Below are positions 4,481 to 64,000 of a stretch of DNA of 64,000 nt, in pieces. The position numbers were made by a program, and so were the translations under genes. Each line of letters begins with the position of its first letter. The first letter of the stretch is position 1. This DNA is from Takakia lepidozioides. Taxonomy: Eukaryota; Plantae; Bryophyta. Under the pieces are notes generated by a model. That model was not told where the DNA came from and did not search any database. It worked only from the letters and a program-made list of their open reading frames with translations. The DNA lies in NCBI GenBank assembly GCA_030704615.1, contig CM060734.1, forward strand, positions 42,470,001 to 42,534,000, given 5' to 3'.

Positions 4481-4526
4481 AACTAGAAGTAGGTAATTCT
4501 AGTTAACCATGACTAAAACCATGACA
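4481..4526 (-). repeat. 46-bp LTR 5' terminus identical to 44075-44120
   Basis: Reverse complement TGTCATGGTTTTAGTCATGGTTAACTAGAATTACCTACTTCTAGTT matches 44075-44120 at 46/46. Confidence 0.9.
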
Positions 4527-30068: not shown

Positions 30069-31899
30069 GGTATGTGTCATGGCTTGTGGAGAGCAACTAA
30101 ATGATTGTTAGTACTCATTTCACTATCAATCTAGGGTTAAGCAAGCTCAAGTGTGGATGTTGTGGAAGAGAAGCCAAGGAGCTACATAGGCTTGGGCTTG
30201 AAGACAACAAGGGCAAGCACTTGGAGAGCATTAGGAAGCTCAAGAGATTTGAAGGGAAGCATATAGTTGAAAATTCTATCCATGATGATGTGAAACCAAG
30301 CCTAGAGCATTGAAGAGCTTGGAGCACATGTGGGAGATCATTGGAGGTGGTCTTCATGAAGAAAAGAGATTTGTGGCTCAAGGCATGCATAGCAACTTCA
30401 ACCATAGACTAACATGTGACAAGACAAAGAAGGGGAAGGCGAAGCTCATGTCACTACAAGAGATGAGCGTTTTTAGGACTACGGCTTTGGCGGAGTCATA
30501 AAAACTGCACTAGATATACGACTACAGACCGCTGAAATGCGTTGCAATCATAGTTTTATCACTTTGTAGTAATGGATATCACTACATGACTCTGGAAAGT
30601 TAGGGAGCATTGGTCAAACATTGTTGACCATGATGACAGGGATGGTTTATATGACTAGTGTGATATGTTTGACTACACGTGGACGACGTTTCATGGAATC
30701 TTATGACTCCATGACTGAAGATGGTTTCACAGCTCTAATTATATGACTACATCACTACACGTGTCATTTTGAAGCCACATACACGAATGTATTCATCCAT
30801 TGGATGAGTTCATCCACAACATGACCTGGCATGTAAACTTATGACTGCCTAAGTGCAGGTTGTTTCATAACCCTATATATATGACTACATCACTACATGT
30901 GTCATTTTAAAGGCATTTATATGATTCTATTACTACACGTGTCATTTTGAAGGCATATACATGAATGGATCCATCCATTGGATGAGCTCATCCATCCATG
31001 TTTACCACAAATTCCTATCAGCTTTGAATATGTGTGGGGATTTGACATCTCTTCAATAAATTGGACCTGGATGGACGTGGCTTAACAAACATCGCAAGAT
31101 ATATGAGATTAAGATACGCAATGGTCATGGTTGTACATGGAAATTATTTTGAATCGATAGATTGTATAAGATCTAACGGTCTAGATTGTTTAAGATCTAA
31201 CGGTTTAAGATTAGGTATATCGAACTTCATGAGCAAATTCGCTTAAGTCCGGGCTGAGAGTTTTGGCAGATGCAACAATAGAAGGGGATGATGATGGTAG
31301 TAGGATTTTAGCCTATGACCACTAGAATTAATCAAAGTGCAAAAAGTTAATTTTTTTTCAAAAAGTTGCTTATAGGGTTTGCAAAAGGTTTAAAAAAATC
31401 AAAAAGTTGCTTATAGGGTTCCCTGAACAAAGGCCTAGGACTTGGGCTTTTTTTTTTCTCCTGCGCCTGCGAGAGATGTTGTGTCATGGAACGTGATGAT
31501 GCTGGAGCGTGGGATGGAGGCTTTGCAGACCTACTCACTCTTGAGCAAATGAAGGAGAAGAGGAGGAGGAGACGAGACAACTCCGACATCATCCGACATC
31601 TCTCGTACTCTCGTCGAGGAGGAGAAGCTCCCAATATTCTTGCGAGCTCGCCGTTTTTGGGAGAGAGATGAGACGAGGAGAAGCTCGCCGTTCTTGGGAG
31701 AGTCAGCTTGGTCTTAGCAGGTCGTGTTTCAATCTCTGCCTGCTCAGCTGCACCGTGGTGGTTCGATCTCGCATACCAATCTGACATCACCTAACTACAG
31801 ACACAAGCAGCACACACAAGAGGTCCTTTTGGGTTGATGGTCGGTCAAATCCTCCATGGGTCATGACACAAGGTCAAGAACAATGTGGTGAGGGCACCT

Positions 31900-36786: not shown

Positions 36787-38289
36787 GTGCCATCAGTTGC
36801 TGAGGAGAGTGCCGGTACGAGCACCAGCGATACTAGTGGGTATACAAGACGAGGTGTGCGGTTTAGGCCACCTTCACCTTCAGTGTCTTCTGAGGAAGGT
36901 TCAAACTCAGAGTTAGGAGGATTCTCGCCGAGGGTGCAAGCCATTTCCGTGCCATTGTTGTGGGACACGATGGAGGAGATGTATGGAGCTACCAAGGGGT
37001 CACGTAGGTACTCTGGAGCTGTGGGCACCATCGAGCTTGATGACTTCATATAAGAGTTTGATAGTTGGTGTGATTTGCAGCAGATGCGCAATCCACAACT
37101 GTTTACGCCTTTTATGGCGTGGAAGGGGCTGTTTCAGCACCTTGAGGGGCCGCCCATGGATGATTACCATGAGTTTAGGCGGGGACATGAGGTGGAGATT
37201 GAGGAATGGCGGGTATGTTGGTCACCTGACTATGTCTCCATCACTAGAGGCACAAGGGCAGTGGTGACACCGGCAGCTATATCGGCAGCTTCTGCAAGCA
37301 GCAGTGGGACGTCAAGTGGGACAGGAGCTGGGAAGTCCACCCAAGCTCCTGCTACAGCACTAACACCCGTGCCTGCCTTTAACCCAGTTGTGGAGTTCTT
37401 CGAGGAGTTAAGGAGAAACTACCAAGGGATAAGGACGGAGAAATTGCGGAGTTTGCAAGAGTTCCAACGAAAGCCTACCGACACTTTAAAGGAGGCTTAC
37501 ACTCGCATGAGGCGCTTGATAAACGTAACCCAAGGGGTTACAGAAGCTCAGGCAATCCAATTCTGGTATGGGATATTGGACAAAGAGCTGAGGAGAAGGG
37601 TGCGGGATGCAACTCTCCTACAAGTGGCCCAACCCACCTTAGCAAACGTGTTTTTGCTGGCAGAGCGGATAGAGCTCAATATGGTGGAGGAGCGAGTAGT
37701 CATGGTGGGGTTTGGTAAGGAGACACAACGAAGTGGGGCTCCTAGCTCAAGACAACAAGGGGGCTTAGGCGAAGCCTAGGGAAGGGTCGAGAGGATCTCA
37801 ATTGCATAGGTCACTTCCTTCATTCTCAGGCCAACAACAGTCGGGTGTGACATGTTGGGATTGTGGAGGACCCCATGTTAAGAGAGATTGCCCAGAGAGA
37901 GGCAAAGGGCCGGCACAGGCACAACCTACACAACTACAGTGTAGGCATTGTGGCAAGTATGGGCATGAAGAGACCCATTATTATGACTTGCATCCTGAGC
38001 TATGGACAGGCCAGTTCCAAGGGAACAATGGTGGCCGAGGACGAGGCAATGTAGTCTAGAGAGGTAGAGGAGGCAGAGGTCGTGGTGGAGGTCGTAACCA
38101 AAACCAAGGAGCACAGGGTCGCGGTCAAGGTCATGACCAAGGCATGGTAGATAGGCTTGCCTACAGCTAGAGCAACGTCTTGCTACCATGGCCACTACTC
38201 ATGTTATGCCTGCTTCAAGGCCTGAGGTTTAAGCCCCACCTGCACAACCTCCTATGCCTAGGGAAGACCAGATTGGTATGGGCTTCATG
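36787..38289 (+). pseudogene. gag: gag (stops/frameshifts)
   Basis: LQEFQRKPTDTLKEAYTRMRRL..FWYGILDKELR; knuckles CWDCGGPHVKRDC and CRHCGKYGHEETH; RG-rich tail. Confidence 0.8.
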
Positions 38290-39136
38290 CACTACAATAG
38301 ATCGCGGTAGTTATGACTGCCAAACCGTGGTAGTCATGGTTTTCATGACTTTGACCATGACTGCACCATGTTTTTATAAAAAATTGACCTCCCGCAGTCG
38401 TTCGTACGAATGTAATCATATGAACGACTATCTAAATAGTCGTCTGTATGATTACACGGCTCCGGAATGGGCGGAAGGCTGGTCAACGGCAATTGACTAG
38501 ATTTAGCTCACCATTCATAGTCATTTCCATGACTACAGTGTACATGGATGAGGTTACATAGTCATGATGACTACTGGGGATTTTGTAATTTGGTGTGTAT
38601 AATACAATTAAAACACCATATGATCATATGAATGACTAATGGGTGTATTGGTTAAAAGGTAGTGAACTATAACTCTTATAGTAAAGAGGTTGCAGGTTCA
38701 AACTCCTCTAAGTACAATCAAATGGATAAGATGGCCCTAGGGTTAGTAGGCGAGCTAGGGATAGCACGTGGTATCCTAGATGGACTGCCACGTGGTTTTT
38801 TCATTATTATAAAATGCATTATGCCACGTGGCACATTGCGGTGCGACGCGGCGTTTGACATATGTTTTTATTTTTCAATTTTTTTTAATTTAATTTAATT
38901 TTTTAAATCAATTGTGCTTCGCCACGTGGCCGGCAGCGGCAGCTGCAGTATGGTATATATGACTGCAGTGAGAGATATCACTTGGTTTATATGACTGTAG
39001 TCATCCGGACCGTACCATCTTGTACTCATTGTATTGACTTGGTTTGCACGACTTACAGTCATAGAAGTCATATGTACCGTTTATGACTGCAAAATAGTCA
39101 TATATACAGTCATAAATACCGTGATCTGTTGTAGGG
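38290..39136. mobile_element. Small non-autonomous CACTA element (847 bp)
   Basis: TIRs CACTACAATAGATCGCGGTAGTTATG and CCCTACAACAGATCACGGTATTTATG; TSD ATG (38287-89, 39137-39); ATGACT subterminal repeats. Confidence 0.9.
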
Positions 39137-39654
39137 ATGTGTGGAGCCGCACTTGCAGGACCATTGCATGTGGACTCTGCAGCTGCTGTCACTCGAGTCA
39201 AGAGGAGCGGATGTGGATTTTGATCCACAAAGAGAGGAAACAAGTCGGCAGACAAGGCTTCCACAGTCTTTCACATTGGCTGAGACAGTGCCAACTATGC
39301 CATCGATGGCACCCGCTCGCCCAAGTGTGTTAGAGGTAGAGCCACGAGTGCCATTGGGGAGAGTTGGTATGGCTCGGGAAATGCCAGTGGGTGGTACTGC
39401 AAAGCAAGGTGCAGCCAATACATTGTTGGGGGCGGCTACGGCAATTTGTCAAGCTTCATTGTTTTCTGCCATGTCAATTGCAATGTTGGGGATGCGACCA
39501 GCTGCAGTGTTTAGACTGGCAGTTGCACTCTCTGAGAGTGGTGATGCATCGACATTATCTGAGGGGATAGCAGATAAGATGCAATGCATGAATGCCCTGG
39601 ATTCAAGGGTGAAGATAGCCACAAGCTGCGCCATGGCAAGCGGCAGCTGCAAGG

Positions 39655-40026
39655 TTGCAGGAGTTGCCAGCTAGGTCAGCCATTGAGCGCAGTATGGTGA
39701 CTCCTGGGGTAGTCCTGGTGGACAATCAGGATGGTGTGTTTCAGTTGGGTGGCCCAGCCGAGAGGAGGTATAGGCCACTGCGAGTCTTGTTGGACTCGGG
39801 AGCACAGCCATTGATATTGGGGAGAGCAGCAATTGCAGGCTTGGGCCTTACAGAGGCAGATTTGGAGCCTTGCCCTTCCCAAATTCAAACATCTTTGGGC
39901 GGTTCAGAGAAGGCACGAGGGATTACACGCCATGAGCTCTTCATTCGATTGCAGCCAGATCATCCTATATATAGCGCTGTCATGAGAGCTCAAGCCATTG
40001 TTACGGACGCGATGTCTTATGATGTC
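39655..40026 (+). pseudogene. Retropepsin-like protease (3'-truncated)
   Basis: RVLLDSGAQPLILG..IQTSLGG..VTDAMSYDV, then an abrupt break. Confidence 0.85.
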
Positions 40027-40027
40027 A

Positions 40028-40288
40028 GCCTTGTATACGCTCATGAGCTTTCCTTTGTCTCATGTTTTTCGAGACAATGGTCCTACGTTGATTTGGGACA
40101 GTGTGCTACAGCAATTGGTGGAGCCCAATGCGGATGAGCGCGAGCCGGCAATGGGGTTTGCCACGGGCACTACAGCTGTGCCAGCTCTGTCAGAGGCATC
40201 ACGACGCCAGGTGTTGGGTCAGGCAATAGATCTCAATTGCTTGACATAGGTCATTGGCTTGTGCATGGCTGAGCAACGGAGATTGTAA
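40028..40288 (+). pseudogene. C5 DNA methyltransferase C-terminal part (motifs IX-X)
   Basis: ALYTLMSFPLSHVFRDNGPTLIWD..LVEPNADEREPAMGFATGTT..SEASRRQVLGQAIDLNCL, aligning by eye to DNMT3-type ELERIFGFP.HYT...RQKLLGRSW. Confidence 0.7.
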
Positions 40289-40699
40289 GCATTGGTGGCT
40301 ACTTCTGCACTTCCATTGGATATTGCACCATCTCTGCCAATCGGGACGGTGGAGGCAATGAGTGGGGGCAAGCACAGGATCATGGGGTGCAAACACCCAT
40401 GGCAGATGTGGGATGAGTGCGGAAAGAGAGAGTCCTTGGATCTCTCAAGCAGCAATATGAGGAGTGGGGAGAGCCATACACTGAGGATCAGTTAGAGGCC
40501 AAGGTGGCCAATGTTTTTGAAGAGGTTGAGCATGTTTCTTGCTCAGAGGATGTTCTCAAGGTGGCTATGGCGGAGCAAGTGGAGGCTACGCCACAGTCAG
40601 ATTGGGCGGACAAGGCCCAAGAGGTTGCTATCTAGCAACCAAAGGATTCGTCTCATACCTCCAAGCCTGGTGTACCCAAGGTTGTAGTCACTGAGGACA

Positions 40700-43412
40700 A
40701 TTGGGAACCAGATGTTGGACCTACAGTCACTGGAGGAGAGAGACGGAGGATCCAACGATTTCTAAGGGCTTATAGAAATTGTTTTGCCTTCAGTTTGAAG
40801 GATTTGGGGAGTTTGAAGGGTCAGGAGATTCGTATTGATTTGGCAAGTGACACGCCAATCTTTCGAAGGCCCTACCGGTATAGTGACATGGAGAGGTCAT
40901 TGATCCAGTCACGGACTATGGAGTTGTTCGAAGCTGGATTGGTGGAGTTGTCAGGCGGGGAGTATGCCTCGGCAATGGTGATGCCAGCTAAGAAGGATAT
41001 CTATGGCAATTGGACAAAAAGAAGGATGTGTGGGGACTATCGTCCTGTGAACCGTCAGACTAAGTCCGATAGATATGCCATGCCAACTCCAGAGGAGATC
41101 TTTGATGCCATTAGGCATGCAAAGGTGTTTAGCACATTGGACTTGCAATCCGGTTACCACCAGTTGCCAATCAAAGAGGCTGATAAGCAAAAGACGGCAT
41201 TCTGGGGGATTGACCAACATGGGAAGGATTGCTTGTACCAATGGCGGTGGATAGGATTCTCGCGGGGCTAGACTTCGCCCGGTGCTACATTGATGACATC
41301 ATCGTCTTTAGTGCTACGGTTGAGGAGCATGAGAGACACCTTCAGGTGGTGTTTGAGCGCTTGAGAGCGTACGGGTTGAAATTGCACCCTGGGAAGTGCA
41401 AGTTCTTCCACAACCAGATTGAGTATCTGGGCCACATGATATACCCTGGAGGATTGGGTGTTCAAAAGATAAAGGTGGAGGCCATTGCACGTATTCCACG
41501 CCCCATAGATGTTAGCAGAGTTCGTGCTTTCATGGGGTTGGCAAACTACTATCGACGGTTTGTCAAGGGATTTAGCAGCATTGCAAAGGCTCTTACCAAG
41601 TTGACCAAGGTGGGTCAGGAGTGGCTGTGGGAGGAGGAATAGGAGGAAGCCTTTGAGGAACTCAAGGCTCGATTGACTTCTGCACCTATTCTGAGGCGGC
41701 CTATTCGGGGGCAGCCTTTCCAGCTACATACGGATTGGAGTATGCTGGGGATTGGAGTAGTGCTCACACAGGTGGATGATGAGGGAAGAGAGTTCGTAGT
41801 GGCATTTGCTAGCCGCTCGAACAATGATGTCGAGGCGAAGTATAGTTCATATGAAGGGGAGTGTCTAGCTGCGGTATGGGTAGTGACACATTTCAGATGC
41901 TACCTCTATGACAATCTCTTCACCCTTGTCACGGATCACCAACCATTGAAGTGGTTGATAGAGTCAGACAAGCTTACAGGGAAGCTTGCACGGTGGGCAC
42001 TTATGCTTCAAGAGTACGACTTCCAAGTGGTGCATCGAGCCGGTATTGTCAATCGGGATGCAAATGGATTGAGTCGTAATCCATGCACGAGCGAGCACGA
42101 TGATACTGGAGCTCGGTGGCATGGTGAGACAGATGAGGAGATGGTGCCAGGATGGCATGCATCGTCCTTTTTGTGCATTCTAGCAATGGGAGCTCAAGCT
42201 GGTCTATCCCATGCGATTGGTCATGTAGATAGCGTGCATGACGATCCAGAGACTAGTGAGGAGTTTGGTGGTGCTAAGGATGTGCATGAAGATGCAGCAG
42301 TGTTGGCATACCTTCGTACCGGAGAGACAACGGCCAATGTGACTGCTAAGGAGAGGGATCGGGTCCTACAACAAGCTAAGAGGTTCAAGTGGGAGGAGAC
42401 TTACCTACTCCGGGTATGGGAGGATGGACAAGTGAGGATTGTGCCTCATCCAACACAACGAGTGCGATTGGTACGCCATGCCAATGAGGAGTTGGGACAT
42501 TTTGGGGTGCGGCGCACTCATAGTTTGCTGCAAGGGCAGTATTGGTGGCGGGGCATACACACGGATGTGCAACAGTTAGTGGCAAGGTGCATGGTGTGTG
42601 ATAGAGTGCGGGCTTCTTTCAATGCACCTACTCCACAATTGCATCATTTATCCATTATGGGTTTGGGCTATCGTTGGAGTCTTGACTTCGCAGGCCCATT
42701 GCCACTAACGATTTGCCATAACAAGTATGTGCTGGTGATGGTGGAACATTTCTCCAAGTGGATTGAACTGGTGGCATTGCCTGACAAGACAATGGAGGGG
42801 GCTGCGTATGCATTCTTAGATCGAGTGCTTAGCCAATTTGGTGCTCCAGCCGAGGTACTCACGGACCAGGGGAGAGAGTTCTTGGGGGAATTTCAGGCTT
42901 TGTGTGAGCAAGCCTTGATAGATCACCGCACTACTTCTCGGTTTCATCCCGAGGCTGATGGCTTGGCAGAGAGAGTTGTACAAACAGTCAAGCGAGGCTT
43001 GCGCAAGTATGGCTTGCAAAAGGGACACTTAGGAGATTGGGACCTTCAGCTATCTTGGTTGGCCATGGGCTACAGGTTTAGCAAACAAACATCACTTGCC
43101 TCGTTCTTGCCTTATTTCCTTCTCTTTGGCCGAGAGCCAGATTTGTCTGCATCGATTCGCAGGGAGACTGCAGTAGTCCTCAACCTTGATGATCCGGATT
43201 TGTGGACACAAGCATGTGCCGAGCGGGCAGAGTTGTTCAAGAGAGTCATGCCTATGGCTTTTGAGAACCTTGCTATTGCCCAACACCGAGACACATTGAG
43301 GTACGCCACTCTACGTCGAGAGGGATATCGGCCAAGTGTTCGGTGTTTCCACCCTGGGGACTATGTGTATCTGCAGCAGACAGCGCCTACGACCTTGGAT
43401 GTCACAGCATGA
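40700..43412 (+). pseudogene. pol: pol: RT, RNase H, integrase
   Basis: RMCGDYRPVN, LDLQSGYHQ, YIDDIIVF; LHTDWS, EGECLA, TDHQPL; LGHFG..CMVCDR, WSLDFAGP, TDQGREF, GLAER. Confidence 0.93.
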
Positions 43413-43580
43413 CGTGTGATTCTAAGGGTCAGGGAGGTGTTGCCTTCAGGAGTGTTGATTCTGGAAGGTCGAGACGGCATGGTATGGAAAGACCATGTGC
43501 GCAATTGTGCGCCATGTCACCTTCCACATGTAGATGGGAGGATAGATCCCAACCTTGCAGTGGTACCTGCAGGGTTGCGT

Positions 43581-43715
43581 TGCATGCTATGTGGGCATGC
43601 TGGTGGCGCCGTAACCATGTTGGTGTGTGACAAATGCTCAAGGGGGTGGCACATGGGATGCTTGACACCGTCACTTGAGGAGGTTCCTATCGGAGAATGG
43701 TTGTGTCCACGATGC
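43581..43715 (+). CDS. PHD finger at the integrase C-terminus
   Basis: CMLC..MLVCDKCSRGWHMGCLTPSLEEVPIGEWLCPRC (C4HC3), in the integrase frame after a single TGA at 43410-12. Confidence 0.92.
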
Positions 43716-43976
43716 CTTGGACAGAGGTAGTGGGCATGACAATGGTGAGGCGGACAAGTGATCCAAGGTCTAGCTAGTGGGGCTTCAATGCCATGAATAC
43801 TCAACTGAAGATCATGGATTGCATGAAGGCGACTAACGATGGGGCTACGTTTGCACCCGGCCTCTTGATCTATCGACTTCAGGTGTTGGGACTTGTGCAA
43901 TTGAAGACCAAGCGATGATCCTATTGAGATGGATACTTGTCAGCTATCCGGTGTTAGAGGGACCTAATCACCAGCT

Positions 43977-43987
43977 AGGGGGGCGAT
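43977..43987 (+). promoter_or_regulatory. Polypurine tract
   Basis: AGGGGGGCGAT directly before TG at 43988. Confidence 0.7.
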
Positions 43988-44527
43988 TGTGGCATAGCTT
44001 TCTAGGATTGTGTGCTTAGATTGTGTGGTGGACAACGATGTATGTTGTGGCACGATGCTTAGGTGCATGACAGTTGTCATGGTTTTAGTCATGGTTAACT
44101 AGAATTACCTACTTCTAGTTAACTAGGACATTTTTGATATTTATATTTGTATTTTGTGTGTTGGGACTTCATTTGGTCTCACATGCCAAGTGAGGTGTCA
44201 AACCTCACTTGGGACATGGGGATGGGTTTTCCCCTTGTGAGCGTTGAGGAGGGCTCATCTTCTTGTAGTTGAGCCTCCATGAGCCTCTCCCACCTCCATA
44301 GCTCTAGGTATTGAGAAGGAGTGTGGTGAGGGCTTTGTAGGGTGGATTCCTTTAGCAAAGGTGCCCTTGGCTTGACTTAGTTTATGTGATTGAGTGGATT
44401 CATGAGTGGAGTGTTTCCCTTGTGTTCACTTTCATTATCGATTGTGGCATAGCTTTCTAGGATTGTGTGCTTAGATTGTGTGGTGGACAGCGATGTATGT
44501 TGTGGCACAATACTTAGGTGCACAACA
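43988..44527 (+). repeat. 3' LTR region: 85-bp LTR-end copy + GT + 453-bp LTR (44075-44527)
   Basis: 43988-44072 is nearly identical to 44443-44527; TGTCATG...CACAACA termini. Confidence 0.75.
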
Positions 44528-47500: not shown

Positions 47501-48468
47501 AGATTAACTCTAAATCTTGCAACCATGCTACATTTTTACTTATCAAACCCTCTAGACATTAGCGAAGAACCTTCTGCCATTTAGAATGTTGTAATGTCAA
47601 GTTGCAACTCTCTTGTTTTCCAGCTTGTATCGTGTTTTCTTTTGTCCCATAAGCTCTTCTGAGCTTTCTATGGATGTCATAACGTTCTTTTCATTTCGTT
47701 TTTCCTTCACTATGGTTTGTCTTGTTCTTCTCGTGTTCCTTGGGCCCTCTGGGCCTCCCTTGTGATAAGCATCTTCTTTCTTTCTCTCTAATTTTTTGGG
47801 CTACATGGGCCCCCACAATGATACAAGGAGCACGTGTTTCGTAGCGTGTATTGCAAGAGAGCATTCAGTTTGAGGTTAGAACATTCCAGTATTCAAGTCG
47901 TGTTCCAATATCTTGTACTCTTGTTCATTGTTATAAAGATCGTCTTGATTCCTATTTACTCATCGTACATACGGCCACGCCGACCTTGACTTCTTGTAAG
48001 ATGGAAGGCACATTTGCGGAACTAGTCGCCACATTGCAGACTGACTCCTGTGAATGGCCAAACGATATCCCGCACCAATGGCAATGACACAGATCCCTCC
48101 TCTTCCGCTTCCCCTGAGTTCGAAAAATCTGACGTGAACTGGAAGCATATCAAGACTTCTATTAGGACAAACCTATTCTACAGATAGAAGCTCGGGCCAA
48201 GGTCTCTTCATGAATTTAGCTGTTTTCTGTGGCCTCAATACCCTGGTACTTGGTTCGTCCTTTGGACATGGAACATACGTTCTCCAAATACATTTGTAGT
48301 GTGTCATTAGCTGTCAGTATTGCAGCTGGTCATGGTTCGTCGGATCATCCGTCACGGAATGCCATGTGTTCAAGCCTTATGGCAGCCTACGGGCATCAAG
48401 GGTTTTAATTTTTTTCCCTTCAATAATTTTAATAAATTAAACCAGGGCATGTTCCCGGTTCTAAAAAC

Positions 48469-51980: not shown

Positions 51981-52135
51981 ATCGTGAGCCCAGCCCCGTG
52001 AAAGTGGTCGAAGATGTTAGGGCCTATTACCACGGTCGATCACCCATTCCTGTCGAAATTTGGCTATTGCAAAGCAGGCCTAAACGCAAACCCTAAACCT
52101 TAGATCATAAACCCCAAACCCCAACTGGGGTCAAT

Positions 52136-52696
52136 GAAGAAGAGGTGGAAAAAATTGGAGTGACATCGTGAAGCTTAACGAGGGTCTAATTTTGAAGATC
52201 AAGAGGTGAAAAAAACTAGAGCGACATCGTGAAGCTCAAGGAAAGTTTATTTTTGAAGAAGAGGTGAAAAATAAGTGGGAATGACATCGTGACGCTCAAC
52301 GAGGGTTTAATTTTGAAGAAGAGGTGGAAAAAAACTATAGTGACATTGTGAAGCTCAGCAAGGGTTTAATTTTGATGAAGAGGTGGAAAAAAACTGGAGT
52401 GACACCGTGAAGCTCAACGAGGGTTTAATTTTGAGGAAGGGGTAAAAAAAACTGGAGTGACATCGTGAAGCTCAACGAGGGTTTAATTTTGAAGAAGAGG
52501 GGAAAAAAATTGGAGGGACATCGTGAAGCTCAATGAAAGTTTATCTTTGAAGAAAAGGTGAAAAATAAGTGGGAGTGGCATCGTGAAGGTTAATGAGGTT
52601 TTGTTTTTTAAGAAAAGGTGAAAAAATGGGAGTTACATTGTGAAGCTTAATGAGGTTTTGTTCTTGAAGAAGAGGTGAAAAAAATGTGAGTTACAG
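52136..52696. repeat. ~59-bp tandem repeat, ~9.5 copies
   Basis: GAAGAAGAGGTGGAAAAAAACTGGAGTGACATCGTGAAGCTCAACGAGGGTTTAATTTT head-to-tail. Confidence 0.93.
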
Positions 52697-52736
52697 TGTG
52701 CTGTTTCGGATGAATATCATAGCTGGATCTTCCCCC

Positions 52737-54680
52737 TATGACAGCCTCTACCCCCGCGACTGCGTATTCGGTGCCACAGGCTTAGCGACTCAACATGCTT
52801 GGTCTGGGAATGGCCTCGCGCACCCGCCACCCGGTCCTCTCACACACGAAGCCCTTCAAGTCTTGTTGCCCACTCGTCCCCGTCTTCCATCACCATCCTC
52901 ATCCTCACACAACAAAAATCATCCGCGCACCACCACCCCTTGCTCCAACTTCCCTCGGGAGTCACGCCACGCGCAGTCATAAACCCCAACCAGCTTCGAT
53001 ATTCGCGCGCCCTGCCCTTCCCTAAGTATCTTCGCCACCGGGAACCCACTATTACCATGATTCTCCATGTCCAAAACACCGTCCTGGTCCCCATATCTCC
53101 ATACCTCCATACACATCTCAATTCTCTACTGTATGACACCCACCATATGACTACTGCCACTTACCCCACACAACCACCCCACAAACCCACCTCCACACAA
53201 TCTATAGGTCCAAAACCACCCAAAGCCTGGACTGACGCCCCTCCCCGCCCAACCACCGTACATGACGATGCAGTCCCCCCCCCCCCCCCCCCCCTATACA
53301 CCATGGACGCCCCTCTCCCAAATACTCCCCACTCCACTCACACTATACAGATGGCTCCCTCTCCAGCTTTCTACTCCGTAACCACCTCGCTTGCCCCACC
53401 TCTCATCACCATCACCATGACCGAAACCTTATTTCTGTTATTGTTGACCTCACTATCTCAATTGATCACCCCATCCATATTATTAAAGTTCGATCACAAA
53501 TCGACCTTGCTAGCAACGAGGAGGCCGATCTCCTAGCCCAACTTAGGGGCCTCTAAATCCCCAGTCGAACCCCGACAGATCCCATCCATATTGCACATGC
53601 CTATCCTTTCTGGCTAACCTACCCGGTCCCCGAACCCCCAGCTCCTCGGCCTATCCGGAACCTTCTTACTACACTAACCTGCGAAAGCCAACAAACAAAC
53701 ATCTGTTTCCCCCAGCCACACCAAACTACATATCCAAAAATGGACACAATCCACAGTCCTCCACCATAAACTGTCAAACCATTTCTACACATACAAGCTA
53801 CATGCGACGCCCAAATCAGACAAACACTCAAATTTAGGTAGGCCAGTACATGGGTCACCAACGTAAATACATTTTTTGGCCAAACATCTACCCATCCCCA
53901 CACTGCCCGTTATGCTCCCACATCCATGCGGCACGCGATACCTGGCTCCACCTCCTCAGCCTATGCCCACACCCAGTCATCCATGGGCTTCGTATCACCA
54001 GGCACAACCATGCGGTCTGGCACATCCACAAACTCCTACTCCGCCGCCCTGAAACTAGATGGTTCTCACTCATCAATGCAAGCACCTACCAAGGTCAACC
54101 CCCTAACCACATTGTCCCTACATGGCTACTCCCCTGTGCTTGTCGACCCCATCACCTTGCACCTGCCATGCCTGACTTTGCCCGGACATTCTCCTAGTAC
54201 AAGGGCTCCCCATTAACGCCCCCGCACCTACCCGCCCATCTCCAGATATTACCATTCACTTCATATAATTTACTTACTGCAATGACCGCTTCTCTAGTTC
54301 CTCGATCCTTGAAAAAAACCAAAAATACTACCCACTCTCCTCGCTATCTACAGACACGGCTGGAAGATAGGCCCCCTTACTGTCATTACCGCCGGCGCCA
54401 GAGGGGGCATCCACACCACCAATATCTCTGCTCTTCACAAAAAATTAAAATCCCATCACCCCTATCCACAAATGTTTTAAAGCTATCCACCTCACTGCAC
54501 TCTGCTCTCTTATTGCTATCATCACCAACAAGCATCAACTTGAATCAAATCCTCCCGTACCCTAGATATCCGTGACACCCCTTGGTACCCAGGTGGTACC
54601 ATTAGTTACATCCTCTCTACCGGTCACGGACATCTTCTTTTTATAGGACCCACCCCTGAAAAGGGTGTCAAGTTATTTTA
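52737..54680 (+). mobile_element. Non-LTR retrotransposon remnant with CCHC finger and restriction-like endonuclease (RandI/Dualen- or R2/NeSL-like); best preserved 53800-54575
   Basis: CPLC..DTWLHLLSLC..RHNHAVWHI; PDILLVQG..IHFI*FTYCNDRF; GWKIGPLTVITAGARGGIH. Confidence 0.7.
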
Positions 54681-54780
54681 CCTATAGTGTGAAACTAGCT
54701 AGAAAATAGTTAGTTTTGATATATTGACATTTGGGATTGATCCAAGTGTCAATCCAGGGCCCAATGTATTTTTGGGCACC

Positions 54781-55341
54781 TGGCGTGGACCGTCAGGAGA
54801 GGAGGAGAGTGCGGGGATTGCACCAGGACCACCTCAGTTGTCACCATTGGACACCACATCTATTGTGTGGCAGTATCCGGATGAAGGCATTTGCATTCTG
54901 GACTTGTTTGGCGGGATTAACACCGGATTGGCTGCTGTGCTACAGGCATGTGTATGGGTTCGGCATTACCTGTATGTGGAGAGGGATGAGATTGCACAAC
55001 GCGTCTCACTTCGCCATGTTGCTCAGTTGGTGCAGCAGTACCCTGAGTTGTTGCCGGGTTGTCTGAGTCGTGGATACCAGCAGGCCTTGCCAGCAGACAT
55101 TTCGTTGCTGGGGGCGCAGGATTTGGAGCGGGTTGGCTCCATTCATTTGGTGGTGGCAGGTTGGCCCTGCCAAGGGTATTCATCAGCCGGGCATGGCAAT
55201 GGATTGCGAGACTCGCGGTCGGGTCTGTTTTGGAAGATGGTGCGGGTTTTGCGCCACTTACAGCTTCATCTTAGCTGTATCTCCAGCATACATCTTGGAG
55301 AATGTGCCACTGATGGGCGATTCTTGGGCCAGGGTGATGGC
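54781..55341 (+). pseudogene. C5 cytosine DNA methyltransferase, motifs I-VI (retrotransposon-type), truncated by an LTR insertion
   Basis: ILDLFGGINTG (I), YVERD (II), ADI (III), VVAGWPCQGYSSAG (IV, catalytic Cys), DSRSGLF (V), and after a frameshift near 55270 YILENV (VI). No introns. Confidence 0.92.
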
Positions 55342-55914
55342 TGTTAAGGACAAGAACATGATTGAACACAAACAAGAAATCAGACTAGAGATACAAGACT
55401 AGACAAGAAGTCAAGGCCGGCGTGGCCGAATGCATGGTGGGTAAACATGAATGATCTTTATAACAATGGACAATAGTACAAGATACTGGAACTCGACTCG
55501 AATACTGGAATGCTGGAAACTGGACTGGGGTACCAGATACTGAAAACTGGACTTAGAGTACTGGAAGTTGGACTGGAGTACTGGGACTGGGAACAATAGT
55601 AGCTTGAACTTGTGTTGGCGAGACTGAAGAGTGTCCAGTCTCGCCTCATATATATACTGGCTACTAGGAGGTTCCCTAAGAGGCTTCCCCAAAGGAGGTA
55701 TATTGATGGAGAAGTTTCTTCAAATGAAGCTTCCTGAGCAGTTTCCCAAGTTACTCTCAGTAATTTGGTAAACTCCCGATAGCTTGGTAACTAATGGTAA
55801 CTTATGGTAAATCATGGTAGATCATGATAAATCACGGTAATTTTTGGTAACATGGTAACTTGGTAACTTCTGGTATTTACTCTGTGTAAGTTCATCTGGG
55901 CTATGTCTGTGACA
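55342..55914 (-). repeat. 3' LTR (573 bp) of another LTR element, with PPT at 55915-55927
   Basis: TGTTAAG...GTGACA; minus-strand PPT AGAGGAGGGGTGA adjacent; internal short ACTGG and TGGTAA repeats. Confidence 0.8.
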
Positions 55915-57374
55915 TCACCCCTCCTCTAGCGCCGAGTTCCTCGAGGAGCGGCAAAATCTTGGACTTGCTTAGAGTTGGAGAACCTCCATCCTTAGTGTGT
56001 ATCAGATACACTGAATGTGGAGTCTTCACCTTGAAGCTAACTTGGTTGACATCATCGTTGTGACGTCTTATTGACGTGTAGCTCAGGGCTTAGCTGGCCA
56101 CTAGTACAGATTATCGTTTTTATGACTGTAAATATCACTACATTTGTAGTGATAAGTGCGATTATGACTACATCACTATACAGTGATAAACACGAAGTCA
56201 GTTCTACCATCACTGCGGAGTGATAAGTGCGAAGTGATGGTCGTCACTGCAGACGTGGCACCTGCCCAACGACTCAGAGTGACGTGGGATGTAATGCTGT
56301 AGTCATAACTATACGACTACAAGGTTACGTGTCATGACTACACTTACGACTACGTCACTACAGATGAGCGCCAACATGGAGAGGTCTCTCTATGACTCGT
56401 GTGACCCCCCGGATGTATATGACTACACTTATGACTATATCACTACTCACTACATCACTGAAGGTAGCGCGTGGCATATTTCATGACTACAAATATGACT
56501 CTATCACTATAGCTTTGTTTTGGTTCTGGTAGGTCATCTAACACGTGTCTTTATTCGATTAGTTTTTAAAAAACATTAATGCTATTTTATTTATTTATTT
56601 CATGTAAATTTTATTTATCGTTTTGATATTCAGATGCGTTTAAATATTATAGAGCAATATATTTAATTGAATGAAAGAATTTCACACAAATACATAGATT
56701 GTCTCTGGAATGTCGATCATATTGCAAAATTCCAATGGAAAAATTTCCCATGGATGCCACAAAGGCTCTACAATCAAGAAGCTTGAAAGGCCATAGGGAT
56801 ATATAACCAAGCCTCAAAGGCTACAAGTCCCAAAACCCAAGCCCACACAGGGGCAGCAGTCCACTAGTACTCCTACAATTGAAAAGCTATATTTATATAT
56901 CACCATTGTGGCATATTTTCAACTACATTGCATCATGTTTCAGGAGCTTCAAGCTCCAAATTGTGGTGTTTCCTATCACCTGCCCCAACTCTCTCAGAGG
57001 AGCATACTTATGTTTGCCTCTTTGATGGATAGAGCAGCATAATCGAGTGGCACCACAGGGTACCCGTCACTCACCTTGCTCCCTTGCAGACCAACAAAAA
57101 GTCCACATCCAAGCGTTTGTTGTTGACATCAAGTAGCCGAACATAATCCCCCACCTTGAACTGTCATCCCAACTCCCACATACATAGAAGTATATATCGA
57201 AACTCCTTAGAAGTGTTGGACTAGCAACCAGCTACATACAACAGCAGCCCAAAAGCAACTACTGCTTAGGGGATTGCCTAAAGGCCTCTTGCAGGTAAGC
57301 TGCCAAGCATTTCTGATCCTCATAATGGAAGACTTTGGTGACAGATTGAGTCCCACGGAATAGACCATCAGATT

Positions 57375-57624
57375 CTACCCATGCAGGTTTCTTGTAGCTA
57401 TTGATCCACATGGAATCATAGGTAATCTTGTGCTTGAAATCCGACCCCCCTTGGATGAATCTGGACCCACACTCTATCTCTGCTCCTTCAGCTTATCACA
57501 CTAGTGCCTATGCTGATATTGCGTCTTCTACTCTCTGAAATGTAACAGGCATTCACCTTTTTGCCTCAGTTGTCCCACCATTGACTGGGGTCAGAAAAGT
57601 AATCATTCCACAGCTTCTCGTCAT
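57375..57624 (-). pseudogene. OSB-type PDF motif downstream of the PPR array
   Basis: EKLWNDYFSDPSQWWDN*GKK, GT..AG intron, IHP..SDFKHKITYDSMWINSYKKPAWV. Confidence 0.75.
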
Positions 57625-58800
57625 TTGCCCCTAGGTCTCCAAAGCCTCCATCCCGCGCCCTTGCTGTGCATATCCTGCAATCATCACACTCCACAATACC
57701 ACATGTCGTTCAGCCATACTGTCGAGCATTCCCTTTGCATCCTAAATGCACCCACATTTGGCATACATGTCAACCAGGGCAGTGTTCAGAATGACAGGTG
57801 CAATTCCAGATTTGATGATGTCACCATGCATCTCTTTGCCCTTTTCCAGGGCTGCCAGGCTTACACAAGCACTGCAAACACACAAACGTGATCTGGTTAC
57901 ACTTCACCCCTTCCCCCATCATTGGCTCATAGGTCTCCAAGGCCTCCATCTCGCGCCCCTGCTGTGCATATCCTGCAAGCATGGCATTCCATGACACCAT
58001 ACCTTGTTCAGCCATACTATCCAACACTCCCTTTGCATCCTTGATGCACCCACATTTTGGATATATGTCCACCAGGGTAATAGTACTTCAGAATGACATC
58101 GGGTACAATCCGGCTCTAACAATGTCACTACGGACCTCTTTGCCCTTTCCAGGGCTTCCAGGCTTGCACATGCATTGCAAATGTGGTTGGGCTTCACCCC
58201 TTCCCCCATCATTTGATCCTAGGTCTCCAAAACCTCCATACCAAGTCCCTGCTGTGCATACTCTGCAAGCATCGTGTTCCACCACATCTCGTTCAGCCAT
58301 GTGTTGGAAACTCCCTTTGCATCCTTAATGCACCCACATTTCGCATTTATGTCCACTAGGGCAGTGTTCAGAATGACATCTGGTACAATTCCAGCTTTGA
58401 CGATGTCACCATGGACCTCTTTCCCCTTTTCCAGAGCTCCCCTGCTTGCACACGCATTGCAAACACAAACAAATGTGATGTGGTTGGGCTTCACCCCTTT
58501 GCGCAGCATTTGCTCATAGGTCTCTAAAAGCATTCCTACCACATCCATGCTTGGTAAATCCTGCCAACATTATATTCGACGTGATCAAAGATCGTTGAGT
58601 CATCCTGTTGAATACTTGGTGAGCATCCATGATGCTCCCACACTTAACATACATGTTGACAAGGGTTTTGAGTAGAAAAACATTTGGTGTGGATTCACTT
58701 TAGATAATGTGAGTGTGCACCTACTTTCCAGCTTCCAGACCTTTCATCTTGATGCACTTAAGCAAGAGACAGACATATGTACCTGAATTTGCTGAAATGC
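57625..58800 (-). pseudogene. PLS-class PPR array (about 3-4 triplets)
   Basis: GVKPNHITFVCVCNACASRGALEKGKEVHGDIVKAGIVPDVILNTALVD..KCGCIKDAKGV; VSWNAMLAGYAQQGR. Confidence 0.9.
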
Positions 58801-58974
58801 CTCCTTGGTTTAAAGTCTGTAGAGCCTTTGTTAGTCTGCCTGCCTCACAAAGCATCTTGCCCAGAAGTGCCAGAAGAGGCATTGTGGACTCCCTCTCTTG
58901 ATCCTCTTTCAGAAGCTGTGGTCATGGTTGAGGTGCCTGATTTACCAACTGTGGCGCTGCAACTACTACCTTTA

Positions 58975-60110
58975 GTTGACCATCTAGCCATGTAGGTTTC
59001 TTGTAGCTATTGATCCACAGGGAATCATAGGTAATCTTGTGCTTGAAATCTGGCCTTTTTGGATGAATCTGGACCCACACTCTATCCCCGCCCCTTCAGC
59101 TATCCATGCCTCTCCACAGATAGTGCATTCATCCTTGCCTTGAGCTGCTAGCAGCTAACAGTGACAGCCTAGATTTGTCCTAGGAAACACCCAAGTCAGC
59201 TTATCACACTAGTTCCTATGCTCAATTGCATCTGCTACTCTCTGTAATCCCATAGGCATTCATCTTTTTGCCTTGATTGTCTCACCATTGATGACTGGGG
59301 TCAGAAAAGTATCCATTCCACAGCTTCTCCTCGTCTCTGTTACCTGTTTCTGGATACTTTCCTGTTGTCATATGTTGGCCGTATCATGTCAGTTACTCCA
59401 AACTATCAAAGGTTCACTCAACCAGCTAACTTGCAGAATTCAATATGAAAATCTAGGTACGACTCTGATAACAGGGGAAAATAGGCTGAAATACAGTGTT
59501 GAAGGTGCCTTTGTTAGCAGTGCCTTGTTCTATCGATTGTGCTGCTGCTGCTGCTTATGTTTCCAGTTGACCATCTACCCACGTAGATTTATTGTAGCTA
59601 TTGATCCACGGGGAATAGAAGTAATCTTATGTTTGAAACCCGGTCCTCTTGGATGAATCTGGACCTCTATCCCTAGTCTTTCAGCTATCCCTGCCTGACC
59701 GTCCTTCAGCGGACACCAACGACGTGAAGTTCTTCCAGCAAATACCCCAACCCTAATGATGAGAGCGCAAAACAGACTGCCAAAAGGTTGAAGAAGAAGG
59801 TGCGCTCACCACAATGTCCTTGACCTTGTGTCATGACGCATGGAGGATTTAACCGACCATAAACCCAAAATGACCTCGTGTGTGCTGTTTGTGTCTGTAG
59901 TCAGGCTATGTCGGATTGGTCGACTGGATAAGTGTTCATTCCACTGCTTCTCCTCATTCTGTTATCTATTTTTGGATACTTTCCTGCTGCCACATCGGCA
60001 AAAACTTGTCAAGTCACCCCAAACCACCACAGATCCACCCAACGAGCTAATTTACAACATTCAATATGTATCTCAGGGCCGAGTCTGATGAGAAGGCAAA
60101 ATAGGTTGAA
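58975..60110 (-). pseudogene. OSB-type PDF motif repeats upstream of the PPR array
   Basis: IHPRGPGFKHKITSIPRGS near 59600-59660; KLWNGYFSDPS near 59290-59330; IHPKRPDFKHKITYDSLWINSYKK near 59000-59070. Confidence 0.75.
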
Positions 60111-61363
60111 ATAGGTGGAAGAAGAAGGGTGCCCTCACCACATTGTCCTCAACCTTGTGTCATGACCCATGGAGGATTTGACTGACCATGAATCCAAGAG
60201 GACCTCTGGTGTGTGCTACTTGTGTCTGTAGTTAGGTAATGAATTGGTCTGTGAGAACCACCACGGTGCAGCTGAGCGGGCACAGATTGAAAAACGGTAT
60301 GCTAAGACCTACAAGCTGACTCTCCCAAGAACCTTGTAAACATCAGGAAGCATACCAAATCATGGTACTAACACGAGCCAAGAGCCCAGACCAGGTGATT
60401 CTGACAAAGCGTGCAAGAGAAACATACACTTCTGAGATGGAGAACATCCTATCATAATACACTAAAACTGTCAAATCAGGGTTGACATCTCCCACATACT
60501 TCCACCCAACGAGGTTTACTATTTCATGAGCAGAAACCATGAGCCATGAGCCATGAGCCGCATGAGCCGCATGAGCCGTGAGCCGAAGTCTAAGATACGC
60601 GGATTTCATGAGCGGACTCCTCCAAATTTGGAAATGCGGCAGATTAAACAAGTATTAAAATAATAGTTTTTTAATTTGACCTTGCCATTTTTGGACGTTC
60701 CAGATCATGTAATGCGGCGAAGATATGTCGTCAGTAACAAGTCCGCTCATGGTTTTATAGATCCGCTCATGGAAATAAGTGACCGTGCAACGGGAAATCC
60801 AGTATACCACTGCAAAAGGACGTCGCATACTGGCCTGTATAGAGTATTCTGCGGTTTTACATGCCTTAACATTGGAATGAAGCTGACCCTTTTGCCGCGA
60901 TTGAACCAATGGAGTCTGCACCAATACAGTCTGCAGTACTTCACAATTTCTGTCTTCTTCGGGTATTCGGCGGGAAAGGTTTGCAACTGAACTGGGAAAT
61001 AAGGTGCCGCATTAGGGTTCGCACGTGCGAAATTTCGGAGCGGTTTGGTGTTGGCGAAGGCCGCCTCTACCAGTACCTACGACGATACTTGGAAATGCGG
61101 CGCCGCATTTCCTTGTCGGAGGTCGAATGAGGAAAGCAAGTTTTCGGAAAGCAGAAAAACATGAACCCTCCAACATACAAAAATACATGCACGTGGAAAC
61201 AAGTGAACGATATAGTAATATCTTAGTTCGAGCAAAACAGATTACTGGTAGGCAAGACATATGTCGGACCTTTCTGTGGCCAGAGTCTGAGGTACTGGCA
61301 GCAGTACAGTTCTACTATCCGAAAAGGATGGGCGTACCATTGTATGGGGACCGCAAGCCAAGC

Positions 61364-64000
61364 TCATTGGTCCCCTGGATCCATATTCAGAAGAGTGTGA
61401 ACCTCCTGGGGGCTCAACCCTGGTGCATGTATGAAGTGATGAGTTGTGGAATTACAACGGAGTCTCTTTAGGTACACATAGTACAAATGCTTGCAAGGGC
61501 AGTATGATGCCCCATTGTTCGCCATGATCTGGAAGTCGGTGCAATTGCAGGTGGGTAATTCTGAAATGGTGATGGTGTACACCTCATTGCGAACAGCTGA
61601 GCCCGCCGTGGCCATCTGATACACACGCCCGAATCCTGGTGGGGGCACTTCTGTCGAGCTCTGGATTGTACAGTTCATCCGAAGTGCATTCCCCATCCTT
61701 GTCTCGTTCACTTTTGAGGGAGGTCGTCGCCTCTTCGGTTTCCCCCAACGGTGTGTAGGATGCTTAGAGCTGTCGTGTCCCATTGTTCTTGCTCTCACAG
61801 GGGTCGGTGGTGGAGGCTGTGGAAGCGGAAATGGTTCTCTGGGGACGTCAGTGCGCTGCACCATCCGAAATCCTGCGGCGGTAAGGGCGTCGGCCTCAAC
61901 CTGACCCAGATCGCAGCCTGGTTCCACCGGCCACACCGGGGGAGCCTCTGGCATTGTTTGTATACCGTACTTGGGCTTTCCATACACGCAAGTCATAATG
62001 TCGTGCCTGCAGAACCAGAACTAGGTGGTTGTCGCCTCCGCAAACTTTGCATGGACAAATCTTCCTGTAAAAGTAGGAGCAGGGACAGCCCCATCTGGAT
62101 TCCTCCTTATCATCTCTAAACAACGTTGTTGTGTATCCACACGAATTGCGGAACACCTTCCTCGAAACGACGGCTTTGAGCGAGCAATTCTCCACTGTGA
62201 GGTAGACACAGCCGTCTCCACAATGGCTTGGCCATACTGCATAACAGCGGGCGGAATCTGGGGCAAGGGAGCGGTGGGAATTTTTTGCACGAAATCCCCG
62301 GTTGAAGGCGACGGCGATCTGGAATTTCTTGGGCTTCCACTGCTGGAAGACACATTGTGCGGCAACATGACGGGACCTCGAGGTGCTGTCCGAATGTTCC
62401 TGTTGGATCTCCAGGAATCCTCTTCGCACCCGGGTTCCTCTTCAATCCTCCGCCTGATAGGGCGAGTCCGGACGTCCCCCTCTAGGTGTTCACCTCTGCG
62501 GTGCAGAGGCGTCCCTTTGATCTTCTCTCGCAATGCTGTCGCCCATTTCACTGGATTCTTGGACCTCGAAGCTGTTCGTACCAACAATTCCTCCCTGTCC
62601 GGCCCAAAGCCCCATTGTTTGCCGCTCAGGAACTTGTAGTACGTGGCTTGCTGTATGATTGCTCTGTCGATGTCCTCCGTTGTGGCCGTCACTACGTCCA
62701 CCAGATGTGCGGCAGAAGACGCTCGCCAGGAGGAGTGGACCGATTCTGCCATATTCGTGTTCGGCATGTCCGTGTCGGAATCCAAGCACCGCTCCTAGAA
62801 GGACACAAACAATGGTGAGGGACCAATCGAAATGTCCGTAACAGAAAGACAAATGAACGAAATTGACAGCAGCCTACCTCCCGCATGTACTGTCCGAACT
62901 GTCGATACCGAAAATGCCACCACCCCAACCAGCTGTGCAATGCTCCCAGATTGGTTGTCTCCACTGCACCTGACGTGTTCCACCAAGCCTCGATGATAGA
63001 AAACTTAACCTCCGCGTCATCAAATGTGGGTGCATCCTTCCACGCCGTACAAAGGACACGGTGTTCAGCCTGGAATGAGCTAGCAACAACTTTGGTAGTG
63101 TAGTGGGATAGACTCTGCATCCAATGGAATCCACAGGATCTCTCTTTCCCCTCCATTGGAACATTGGGGTCCTCACCGTACACACGCCGCACCGCTGCCC
63201 AGTTGGCCTGAGCGTTGTCTGCCATGAATCCCCTGAAATTGGGCTCTGGCAATCCCGCCCTTGCCATCTGCTCGTTTATGCCCTCCCACAGATGCATCTC
63301 GGACTATGTGTCCTCCCCTTTCATCTCGCAGATTGCAATCGTCATGAGCCTCTTGGAGTGATAGTCATAAACATGCGCACCCATAGTCACCCACTGATGG
63401 TTTGTAATTCGCTTGATGTGATCAAACATCACCCAAGCATTCGACAAGTTTCCAGTTGTCATGCGAGTGACCAAGTCGACTCCACTCCCAGGCCCACACG
63501 TTGACATTTTGAAAATGTAACAACGATCGGATTCGCTGCCTTGCCCTGGAAACCTACTACCTTGGATGTAGTCATATCCAGTCATTCATTTCACCTCCAG
63601 GATTGAGTACATGTCCGACCCCCTGCCGAACTCTTGCTTGCAAGATACGATGTGATTCCGCACATTCGGACTACAAACGTGCGAGACGGACTCCAAGAGG
63701 TCACGCATCTCGTCTTCGGTCAAGGGCTCTCGGTCGGAACCATCTTCAGACATGATTTTGCCAAGAGCAATCTTGTGGGCTGCCTTCAGCTGAATCTGCT
63801 TTGGTCTGGCTCCGGGGCTCAATTTCACCTCCTCTTTTATGATGTCGTGTGCTTCCTGCACAGCCTCACGCATGTTGCCTCTCGCCAAGGGGTGGCAGTG
63901 GACCCCAACGTGTATGCAAGCTCTAGTCAAGTCCGGGAGCAAATGGATTACGTAATATTGCTTGGCTCTGCACATGGACATGCACGTCGGTGGTTCTTTG
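61364..64000 (-). pseudogene. MULE-type DDE transposase-like gene with C-terminal SWIM finger; 3 in-frame stops, 1 intron (62795-62877); 5' end outside window
   Basis: CRAKQY..IHVGVHCHP (zinc finger); VMFDH, GFMADNAQA, CGFHW, TNMAESVHSSW (D, D, CxxH, E); SWIM CNCTDF..CPCKHLYYV; a phase-0 GT..AG intron restores the frame. Confidence 0.82.

Follow-up and report, generated by a model that had tools for sequence, protein, structure and literature searches.

A DNMT3-like methyltransferase fragment of a Ty3/Gypsy retrotransposon family in Takakia lepidozioides

We analysed a stretch of 64,000 nucleotides of Takakia lepidozioides (contig CM060734.1, positions 42,470,001 to 42,534,000), hereafter called the window, to which all coordinates refer. 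A fragment of a DNMT3-like methyltransferase is located at 54781..55341 on the plus strand; it comprises the end of the linker between protease and DNMT, which lies before motif I, and motifs I–VI. Based on direct reading, the stop-free frame 54781-55269 carries motif I (ILDLFGG, 54895-54915), motif II (YVERDE, 54973-54990), motif III (55087-55101), motif IV (PCQ at 55165-55173) and motif V (55216-55233), all on the plus strand. A frameshift lies near 55270, and motif VI (ENV, 55298-55306, plus strand) is found past it in the next frame; the fragment is cut at 55341. The Pfam domain DNA_methylase (PF00145) is matched over 54781-55341 with E=1.2e-9 and 38.5 bits (cut-off 22). The C5 methyltransferase motifs I, IV (PCQ) and VI (ENV) all occur in order, with coordinates ascending from I to VI. 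A DRM-type permutation (VI–X before I–V) is absent from the fragment, and motifs IX–X follow in its relatives. The traits of CMT are also absent: motif I and PCQ are 88 residues apart in the fragment with no Pfam chromodomain match, and neither chromo nor BAH domains were matched in the fragment or the homologues scanned. The alignment with homologues is colinear with zero gaps, and the fragment is therefore intronless. The intronless state, the normal order of motifs I–VI and the lack of a chromodomain had been proposed in the original prediction, as had the single frameshift, to which we add a second, short compensated indel relative to the other copies, near 55058-55067. PCQ and ENV had been described as intact, which holds for the codons; the two lie in different frames and motifs VII–X are absent from this incomplete C5 domain, so the fragment is no enzyme. 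Complete DNMT domains are present in its relatives.

The fragment ends at an LTR of 573 bp (55342..55914, minus strand) with TG..CA ends, behind which lies the reverse complement of a polypurine tract; it is therefore the 3' LTR of an unrelated minus-strand element inserted into the DNMT sequence. The polypurine tract and the internal remnant of the inserted element, also read directly, occupy 55915..56098 (minus strand). This element stops 184 bp past the LTR at a CACTA-like end at 56099, which matches 35030-35120 and 39081-39129; the opposite end of that CACTA-like element was not seen in the window. Non-autonomous elements of a related CACTA-like type, with many short subterminal repeats, are located at 34800-35121, 38287-39136 and 56099-56520, and contig joints show one of them as an insertion. 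PPR pseudo-fragments and then a SWIM-bearing element are found further downstream. Concerning a partner LTR of the inserted element, the window offers nothing but an inverted match of 116 bp (84%) at 47882-47997, which is a different copy. The sequence ATGGC, behind which the DNMT had been expected to resume beyond the window, occurs within it at 57981 and 62223 with no DNMT behind either, and profile and nucleotide searches of the 64-kb window found neither a continuation of the DNMT nor one of the protease–DNMT linker.

Within the window gag and protease are missing upstream of the fragment too, which makes it a two-sided remnant. The upstream sequence is a LINE remnant, followed by about 120 bp of high-copy sequence starting with TGTCA (54666..54788, plus strand; contig depth 3.6e5 in the bin 54660-54803). 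Local similarity was seen between this stretch and the A repeat of the metagenome locus L031 (4 of 500 shuffles score as high), and no significant similarity to three other reference repeats. Given this weak likeness to a family terminal repeat, the fragment's copy may be internally deleted, the TGTCA stretch possibly being its left terminal repeat, joined to the fragment by that deletion.

Other mobile and decayed sequences are found in the window. At 52135-52700 a LINE remnant contains a tandem array of about ten 59-bp units. A different, young Ty3 element occupies 9200-30000 on the minus strand as three near-identical LTR-flanked pieces; its 1962-codon open frame (10427-16315) contains an integrase and then about 1700 residues without a Pfam match, which include a 10-bp tandem array. 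Decayed PPR gene fragments, 80–90% alike, are dispersed at 1-900, 31800-34000 and 57300-60300 among repeated non-coding blocks and were possibly captured and spread by a transposon; the best matches of one are Diphasiastrum proteins (47–51%, 15 matches among 81 candidates), which marks the host as a land plant without pointing to a group. The minus-strand frames at 61000-64000 contain what we take to be a SWIM-like zinc-finger motif, with no Pfam match, and likely belong to a Mutator-like element.

Public sequencing runs of the same organism were compared with the window, from which they differ at 0–1 positions in the unique flanks; the depth of these flanks is about 60 in run X1. Contigs of other DNMT copies leave the window at 55341 (31 in X1, 8 in X3 and 2 in X5), 16 contigs of X2 exit at 54789, and about 94% of the X1 depth over the fragment is without the frameshift. 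Both the LTR insertion and the frameshift are therefore lesions of this copy. The fragment is a dead Ty3/Gypsy remnant and a poor representative of its family; its copy has lost gag and protease on the left, acquired the frameshift and been cut on the right by the unrelated LTR element. The summed contig depth over the fragment is 5e5-1e6 in X1, against about 60 on the unique flanks, and that of the gag, RT and integrase of the second copy described below is similar (4e5-6e5). Summed contig depth is not copy number; with the overlap of short contigs allowed for, we infer hundreds to thousands of copies of the DNMT-carrying family. In runs X8 and X9, whose RNA label is a guess, contigs of up to 2.2 kb fit gag, protease, RT and integrase at ~83–91% identity, and the depth is roughly 20 in the DNMT bin and near 0 on a stretch of LINE that is unique; high-copy DNA could also give this.

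The second, internally deleted copy of the family, element A, is located at 36970-44527, in the same plus-strand orientation as the fragment. Its gag and zinc-knuckle region (36970..38011) is 64% identical to residues 1-249 of the Marchantia protein P0005 and has a weak Retrotrans_gag match, below the cut-off. One of the CACTA-like elements (38287..39136, no strand assigned) is inserted in element A, and contigs of X1, X5, X8 and X9 skip from 38286 to 39137. The aspartic protease (39652..40026, LLDSGA at 39787-39804) ends at an internal deletion that removed some 400 codons, behind which lies the C-terminal part of the DNMT (40028..40414), with motifs IX–X at 40121-40225 and 63% identity to P0005 residues 1119-1242. 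An in-frame UAG-CAA-CCA with a predicted downstream stem-loop follows (40633..40760), and then RT, RNase H, integrase and a PHD finger, with lesions (40699..43730); the Pfam matches are RVT_1, RT_RNaseH, Integrase_H2C2, rve and PHD (E=1.2e-10). The right end (43975..44527) consists of a polypurine tract (43975-43985), a repeat B1 (43984-44072), a 2-bp spacer, a repeat A2 (44075-44438) and a repeat B2 (44439-44527), B1 and B2 being 94% alike; all these features lie on the plus strand. No left terminal repeat of element A was found in the window. Elsewhere, 47 bp at 4481-4527 (minus strand) are identical to the start of A2 and are the left tip of another copy of element A's subfamily.

Element A is without P0005 residues 717-1118 (402 residues), with which the fragment can be compared directly. 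The claim that the fragment supplies most of what is missing at 40026 stands for the methyltransferase domain, where it covers 149 of the roughly 236 residues that are missing (P0005 numbering), and falls for the whole gap, of which it supplies residues 860-1031 (172/402). The two copies share no overlapping sequence.

The search for related proteins gave 43 matches among 574 candidates, which are longer proteins; identity of the fragment to the best of them, retrotransposon DNMTs, is 60–74%, and the named relatives belong to Marchantia, Calypogeia and Sphagnum. These read Gag, zinc knuckle, protease and DNMT (P0005 of Marchantia, 1278 aa), and some gene models also include RT and RNase H; RT is contained in P0022, P0029 and P0093. 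The predicted residence of the DNMT in a retrotransposon is thereby supported, with the correction that it sits at the end of a Gag–protease frame, before a stop, and not in a continuous pol. A wider search gave 286 representatives (E up to 1e-10), and a retroelement domain was found in 26 of 30 long matches scanned, taken from the 150 listed of the 286; a search among proteins of 3830–5000 aa gave one match. No named Klebsormidium sequence is among the protein matches listed. For the domain context we took the 80 best of 172 confirmed metagenome loci and counted, for each domain, those among them with enough flank: protease is found upstream of the DNMT in 57/59 and gag in 31/36, while downstream are RT (36/40), integrase (18/21) and PHD (18/21). 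The order gag–protease–DNMT–RT–RNase H–integrase–PHD is common to the Marchantia, Calypogeia and Sphagnum relatives and the 80 metagenome loci. This Ty3/Gypsy domain order is present in element A and the loci; the fragment itself holds none of these flanking domains, and is nonetheless almost certainly a piece of a retrotransposon DNMT3.

In the DNMT tree (94 rows, excluding proteins that cover <200 profile positions) the fragment is placed in a 29-row clade with Marchantia, Calypogeia and Sphagnum (SH-aLRT 100). Closterium proteins have the same protease–DNMT order. In another clade, set apart from these, the DNMT lies between RNase H and integrase, and a third is DIRS-like. The RT tree (35 rows) shows the same groups and the two trees are congruent; both are midpoint-rooted quick searches that contain neither host DNMT3 nor Klebsormidium rows. 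Since the RNase H–DNMT–integrase clade stands apart in both trees, the domain either came to lie in another place or was captured twice. Members of this Ty3 clade (P0043, P0076, P0143, P0151, P0157, P0163 and others) have a C-terminal PHD, and the DIRS-like proteins P0096, P0203 and P0204 carry a C5 DNMT together with an adenine methylase of the Dam type, within a single frame. Two Closterium gene models (P0125 and P0126) join a DNMT to Copia-type RT and integrase; these look like nested or chimeric models, and not like a real Copia–DNMT element. The retroelement context of the relatives, the alignments and the trees together support the proposal that the fragment and element A belong to the same retrotransposon lineage.

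The DNMT of the family is DNMT3-like by sequence and by the predicted fold of a full-length relative, P0001, the tree containing no host DNMT3. P0001 matches DNMT3A with E=6e-12 and M.HhaI with 4e-3; its predicted model (pLDDT 93) aligns with DNMT3B over 273 residues (Z 28.6, rmsd 2.5) and with M.HhaI at Z 24.0.

Concerning the expression of the family, DNMT and RT are in one frame in 33 of 47 loci, and the other 14 are mostly 1–2 nt off, as expected from decay. One position between them is a stop in 46 of 48 loci (TAG in 31, TAA in 15), and CAA CCN comes next in 46 (CAA CCC in 44 loci, CAA CCA in 2). In element A the stop at 40633 reads UAG CAA CCA, which is the readthrough motif UAG-CAR-YYA; CARYYA follows 14 of the 5680 stop triplets in the window. 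The exact CARYYA is found in element A, L014 and L029; only 2/48 loci have it. The 48 loci are mostly one family, so that the stop context represents about three lineages; all three share the frame and the CAA CC context. Independent Gag–protease–DNMT proteins of Marchantia, Calypogeia and others end 65–94 residues past motif X, and in the relatives P0093 and P0199 the DNMT runs on into RT uninterrupted by a stop. The sequence that begins about 10 nt past the conserved stop is predicted to form a long stem-loop: 93% of cells are paired, against 39–56% in slid controls, with 22 of the 24 rows from one family. Two-sided change is seen in 6 of 29 pairs, a value that 74 of 500 shuffles reach, the structure having been derived from the same rows, and single folds have z of -0.7 to -4.3.

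The stop before RT is likely read through, judging by its sequence context. There is a smaller, though appreciable, chance that RT and integrase arise otherwise, through reinitiation at an ATG close by, splicing or a transcript of their own, so that the stop would only end the first frame. An ATG is present 6 nt past the stop in 44 of 48 loci, which would allow reinitiation, and termination–reinitiation is described as the route to Pol in some viruses. No ATG is found at that place in element A, L014 and L029, however, the first in-frame Met after the stop of element A lying inside RT, and the common frame and CAA CC context of the three lineages also argue against this alternative. It bears on expression only and is compatible with a high output of DNMT: whether by readthrough or by reinitiation, DNMT would be made in excess over RT. 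From where the stop lies one would expect methyltransferase in large excess over RT; this points to a stoichiometric role for the enzyme in the particle.

The sequence of the DNMT is under purifying selection between lineages. Median dN/dS between the DNMT parts of the window and the loci is 0.17 (80 pairs) and 0.13 (67 pairs), compared with 0.115 for RT and 0.275 for protease, with synonymous sites near saturation. Among the metagenome copies, DNMT has 0.70 (3106 pairs); protease is close to this value (0.67), and RT (0.37–0.47) and RNase H (0.33) are lower. The catalytic motifs are kept in most rows, decayed copies included (DLFGG 71/81, WPCQG 62/81, ENV 75/77); motif VIII reads RPRLWW in only 35/73 loci. 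CG depletion is 0.41–0.55 in the fragment and element A and 0.40 in the other Ty3 element of the window, and as it is no stronger than in that element there is no special methylation footprint; a family-specific footprint was found in neither CG nor CHG depletion.

We consider it probable, at roughly 0.6, that the family packs a DNMT3-like enzyme through its Gag–protease frame and that this enzyme methylates the new cDNA of the element before integration. According to this model, the Gag–protease–DNMT protein would be made in bulk, at capsid levels, and packed into particles, where the protease would free the DNMT; rare readthrough of the stop would supply RT, RNase H and integrase. The DNMT would then methylate the new cDNA, which the PHD-bearing integrase would insert, and arriving pre-methylated might give the element tolerance or protection in a methylated genome. 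The kept catalytic motifs, the dN/dS of 0.13–0.17 between lineages and the CG activity reported for the Symbiodinium DIRS domains speak for this model. Slightly less probable than reinitiation is a different use of the same element, with the DNMT acting in the nucleus on host chromatin or integrated copies and not on cDNA, or serving as a DNA-binding module with relaxed catalysis. The inactivity of the Klebsormidium domain in yeast, which its authors call inconclusive, the DNMT dN/dS above that of RT among recent copies, the variable motif VIII and the lack of extra CG depletion all speak for it. Set against these are the catalytic motifs, which lineages with nearly saturated synonymous sites still share, and the fusion to Gag, which would place the DNMT in the particle.

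Two further alternatives concern the origin of the fragment. It is improbable that the fragment is the piece which element A lost at 40026, carried 15 kb away by a rearrangement or a misassembly. The fragment does lie wholly within the missing stretch of element A, in the same orientation; however, it ends at P0005 860 and 1031, away from the deletion ends at 716 and 1119, and the parts between are nowhere in the window. Separate remnants are to be expected of a high-copy family; moreover, the unique flanks agree with the X1 contigs to 0–1 differences, although none of the contigs listed spans the junctions. Of the 15 contig joints listed, out of 232, none links the fragment to element A or spans the 40026 deletion. 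That it is a pseudogene of a host DNMT3, DRM or CMT, or a bacterial methylase (contaminant or transfer), is hardly conceivable: the 170-aa fragment alone does have M.HhaI as its best PDB match (E=2e-4, PCQ region only), but none of the 27 homologues scanned, of the 43 matches, has the DUF3444 reported for plant host DNMT3s (PMC6453930) or a chromo, BAH or PWWP domain, prokaryote genomes contain no relative (0 of 38 candidates) and viral contigs gave a single weak match over 39 residues, and the retroelement context of the relatives refutes such an origin.

The ends of the family are split direct repeats in the order A, internal region, polypurine tract, B, 2-bp spacer, A, B; at its right end, element A matches the metagenome loci in layout, spacing, junction motif and polypurine tract. 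Both ends are present in nine loci (A..B-A-B in 5 and A..B in 4), with L010, which is cut by a contig end, left out of the count. TG..CA-type ends with a perfect 4-bp target duplication are found in seven of the nine; in the eighth the duplication has a mismatch, and the ninth is without one. Two of the nine share a site, and the perfect duplications thus represent 6/8 sites. Two whole direct LTRs are absent, and no TGG primer site was seen after A1 in the 6 loci examined. In L029, L034, L036 and L054 the target duplication is intact and only one B repeat is present, which is what recombination of B1 with B2 would leave. The layout is that of a two-LTR circle opened at an internal CA-NN-TG, which suggests, from the sequence of the ends, that the integrase may act on that junction. 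DIRS/Ngaro traits are absent, with rve and H2C2 integrase in element A and 4-bp duplications in 7/9 loci. We found no matching description of Gypsy elements with such split repeats in the literature searched. The split ends and the DDE integrase point to an integration route unlike that of textbook LTR elements.

A broader picture, which we put forward tentatively and hold to be somewhat doubtful, is that of an old green-plant lineage, kept from streptophyte algae to mosses and liverworts and amplified here to hundreds or thousands of copies, with DNMT3 packed at capsid levels by way of stop-codon readthrough, cDNA methylated in the particle, and permuted ends that arise when a circular or end-joined cDNA is cut at an internal CA-NN-TG for integration. 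If true, a transposon would arrive pre-silenced, and de novo methylation in seed-free plants would have a second source, a mobile one. Since 2018 it has been asked why retrotransposons should carry an enzyme that silences them; the known cases are in organisms with few genetic tools. Marchantia polymorpha has long open Gag–protease–DNMT frames that are annotated only as hypothetical proteins (e.g. Mp_4g09160), and since methylation mutants exist in this model plant, substrate and role can be put to the test there. In the annotation of bryophyte genomes, copies of the family can also be taken for DNMT3 genes of the host.

The closest known system is KnitGypsy-Dnmt3 of Klebsormidium nitens, for which de Mendoza et al. 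(2018, PMC5890265) describe an intronless Dnmt3 domain and DIRS-like repeats; they report that the acquisition took place 'in the K. nitens lineage'. According to the same source, the Klebsormidium domain did not methylate yeast DNA, a result that the authors call inconclusive. Both systems have an intronless, non-permuted Dnmt3-related domain in a Gypsy-type element, under purifying selection (here 0.13–0.17 between lineages and 0.70 among recent decayed copies), and both combine a DIRS-like repeat layout with Gypsy domains, the layouts being compared through the legend of Fig. 4c in that paper. They differ in host, which for KnitGypsy-Dnmt3 is K. nitens and for our family a land plant, with relatives in Marchantia, Calypogeia, Sphagnum and Closterium, and in copy number, which looks far higher here. 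A stop splits DNMT from RT in our family (46/48), whereas KnitGypsy-Dnmt3 is described by its authors as one ORF with RT and RNase H. The family works like KnitGypsy-Dnmt3 and probably descends from the same lineage; because of the stop, and because the trees are without Klebsormidium rows, we do not file it as a member. DNMT3 in streptophyte retrotransposons is also mentioned in PMC12344493, in passages that do not name land plants, and a preprint (bioRxiv 10.64898/2026.05.21.726589) lists 'streptophytes (Gypsy-DNMT3)', its main text being without Marchantia or land plants. We found no description of a DNMT3-carrying Gypsy element of land plants in the literature searched, most subscription papers being outside the search. 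SymbioDIRS-Dnmt3 of Symbiodinium is likewise a retroelement-borne Dnmt3-type domain; its domains are reported to carry out de novo CG methylation in yeast, and methylation of cDNA was proposed for it (PMC5890265). It has a tyrosine recombinase, in contrast to the Gypsy RT, DDE integrase, PHD and 4-bp target duplications of our family. The plant host enzymes (PpDNMT3a/b; Yaari et al. 2019, PMC6453930) and animal DNMT3A/B, as described, share the DNMT3 fold and motif order; unlike these, the family has no DUF3444, PWWP, ADD or introns and is fused to Gag and protease. Concerning the stop, the type I readthrough motif UAG-CAR-YYA is described for tobamoviruses (PMC3542737) and gag-pol stops for Tca2 and VdLTRE5 (PMC3441728), and a report of CARYYA in retroelements was not found in the literature searched. 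A single in-frame stop before the polymerase is common to all of these and to the family, in which the exact CARYYA is that of element A, L014 and L029 and most metagenome copies have CAA CCC; its stop, at which readthrough is predicted, follows protease and DNMT and not gag.
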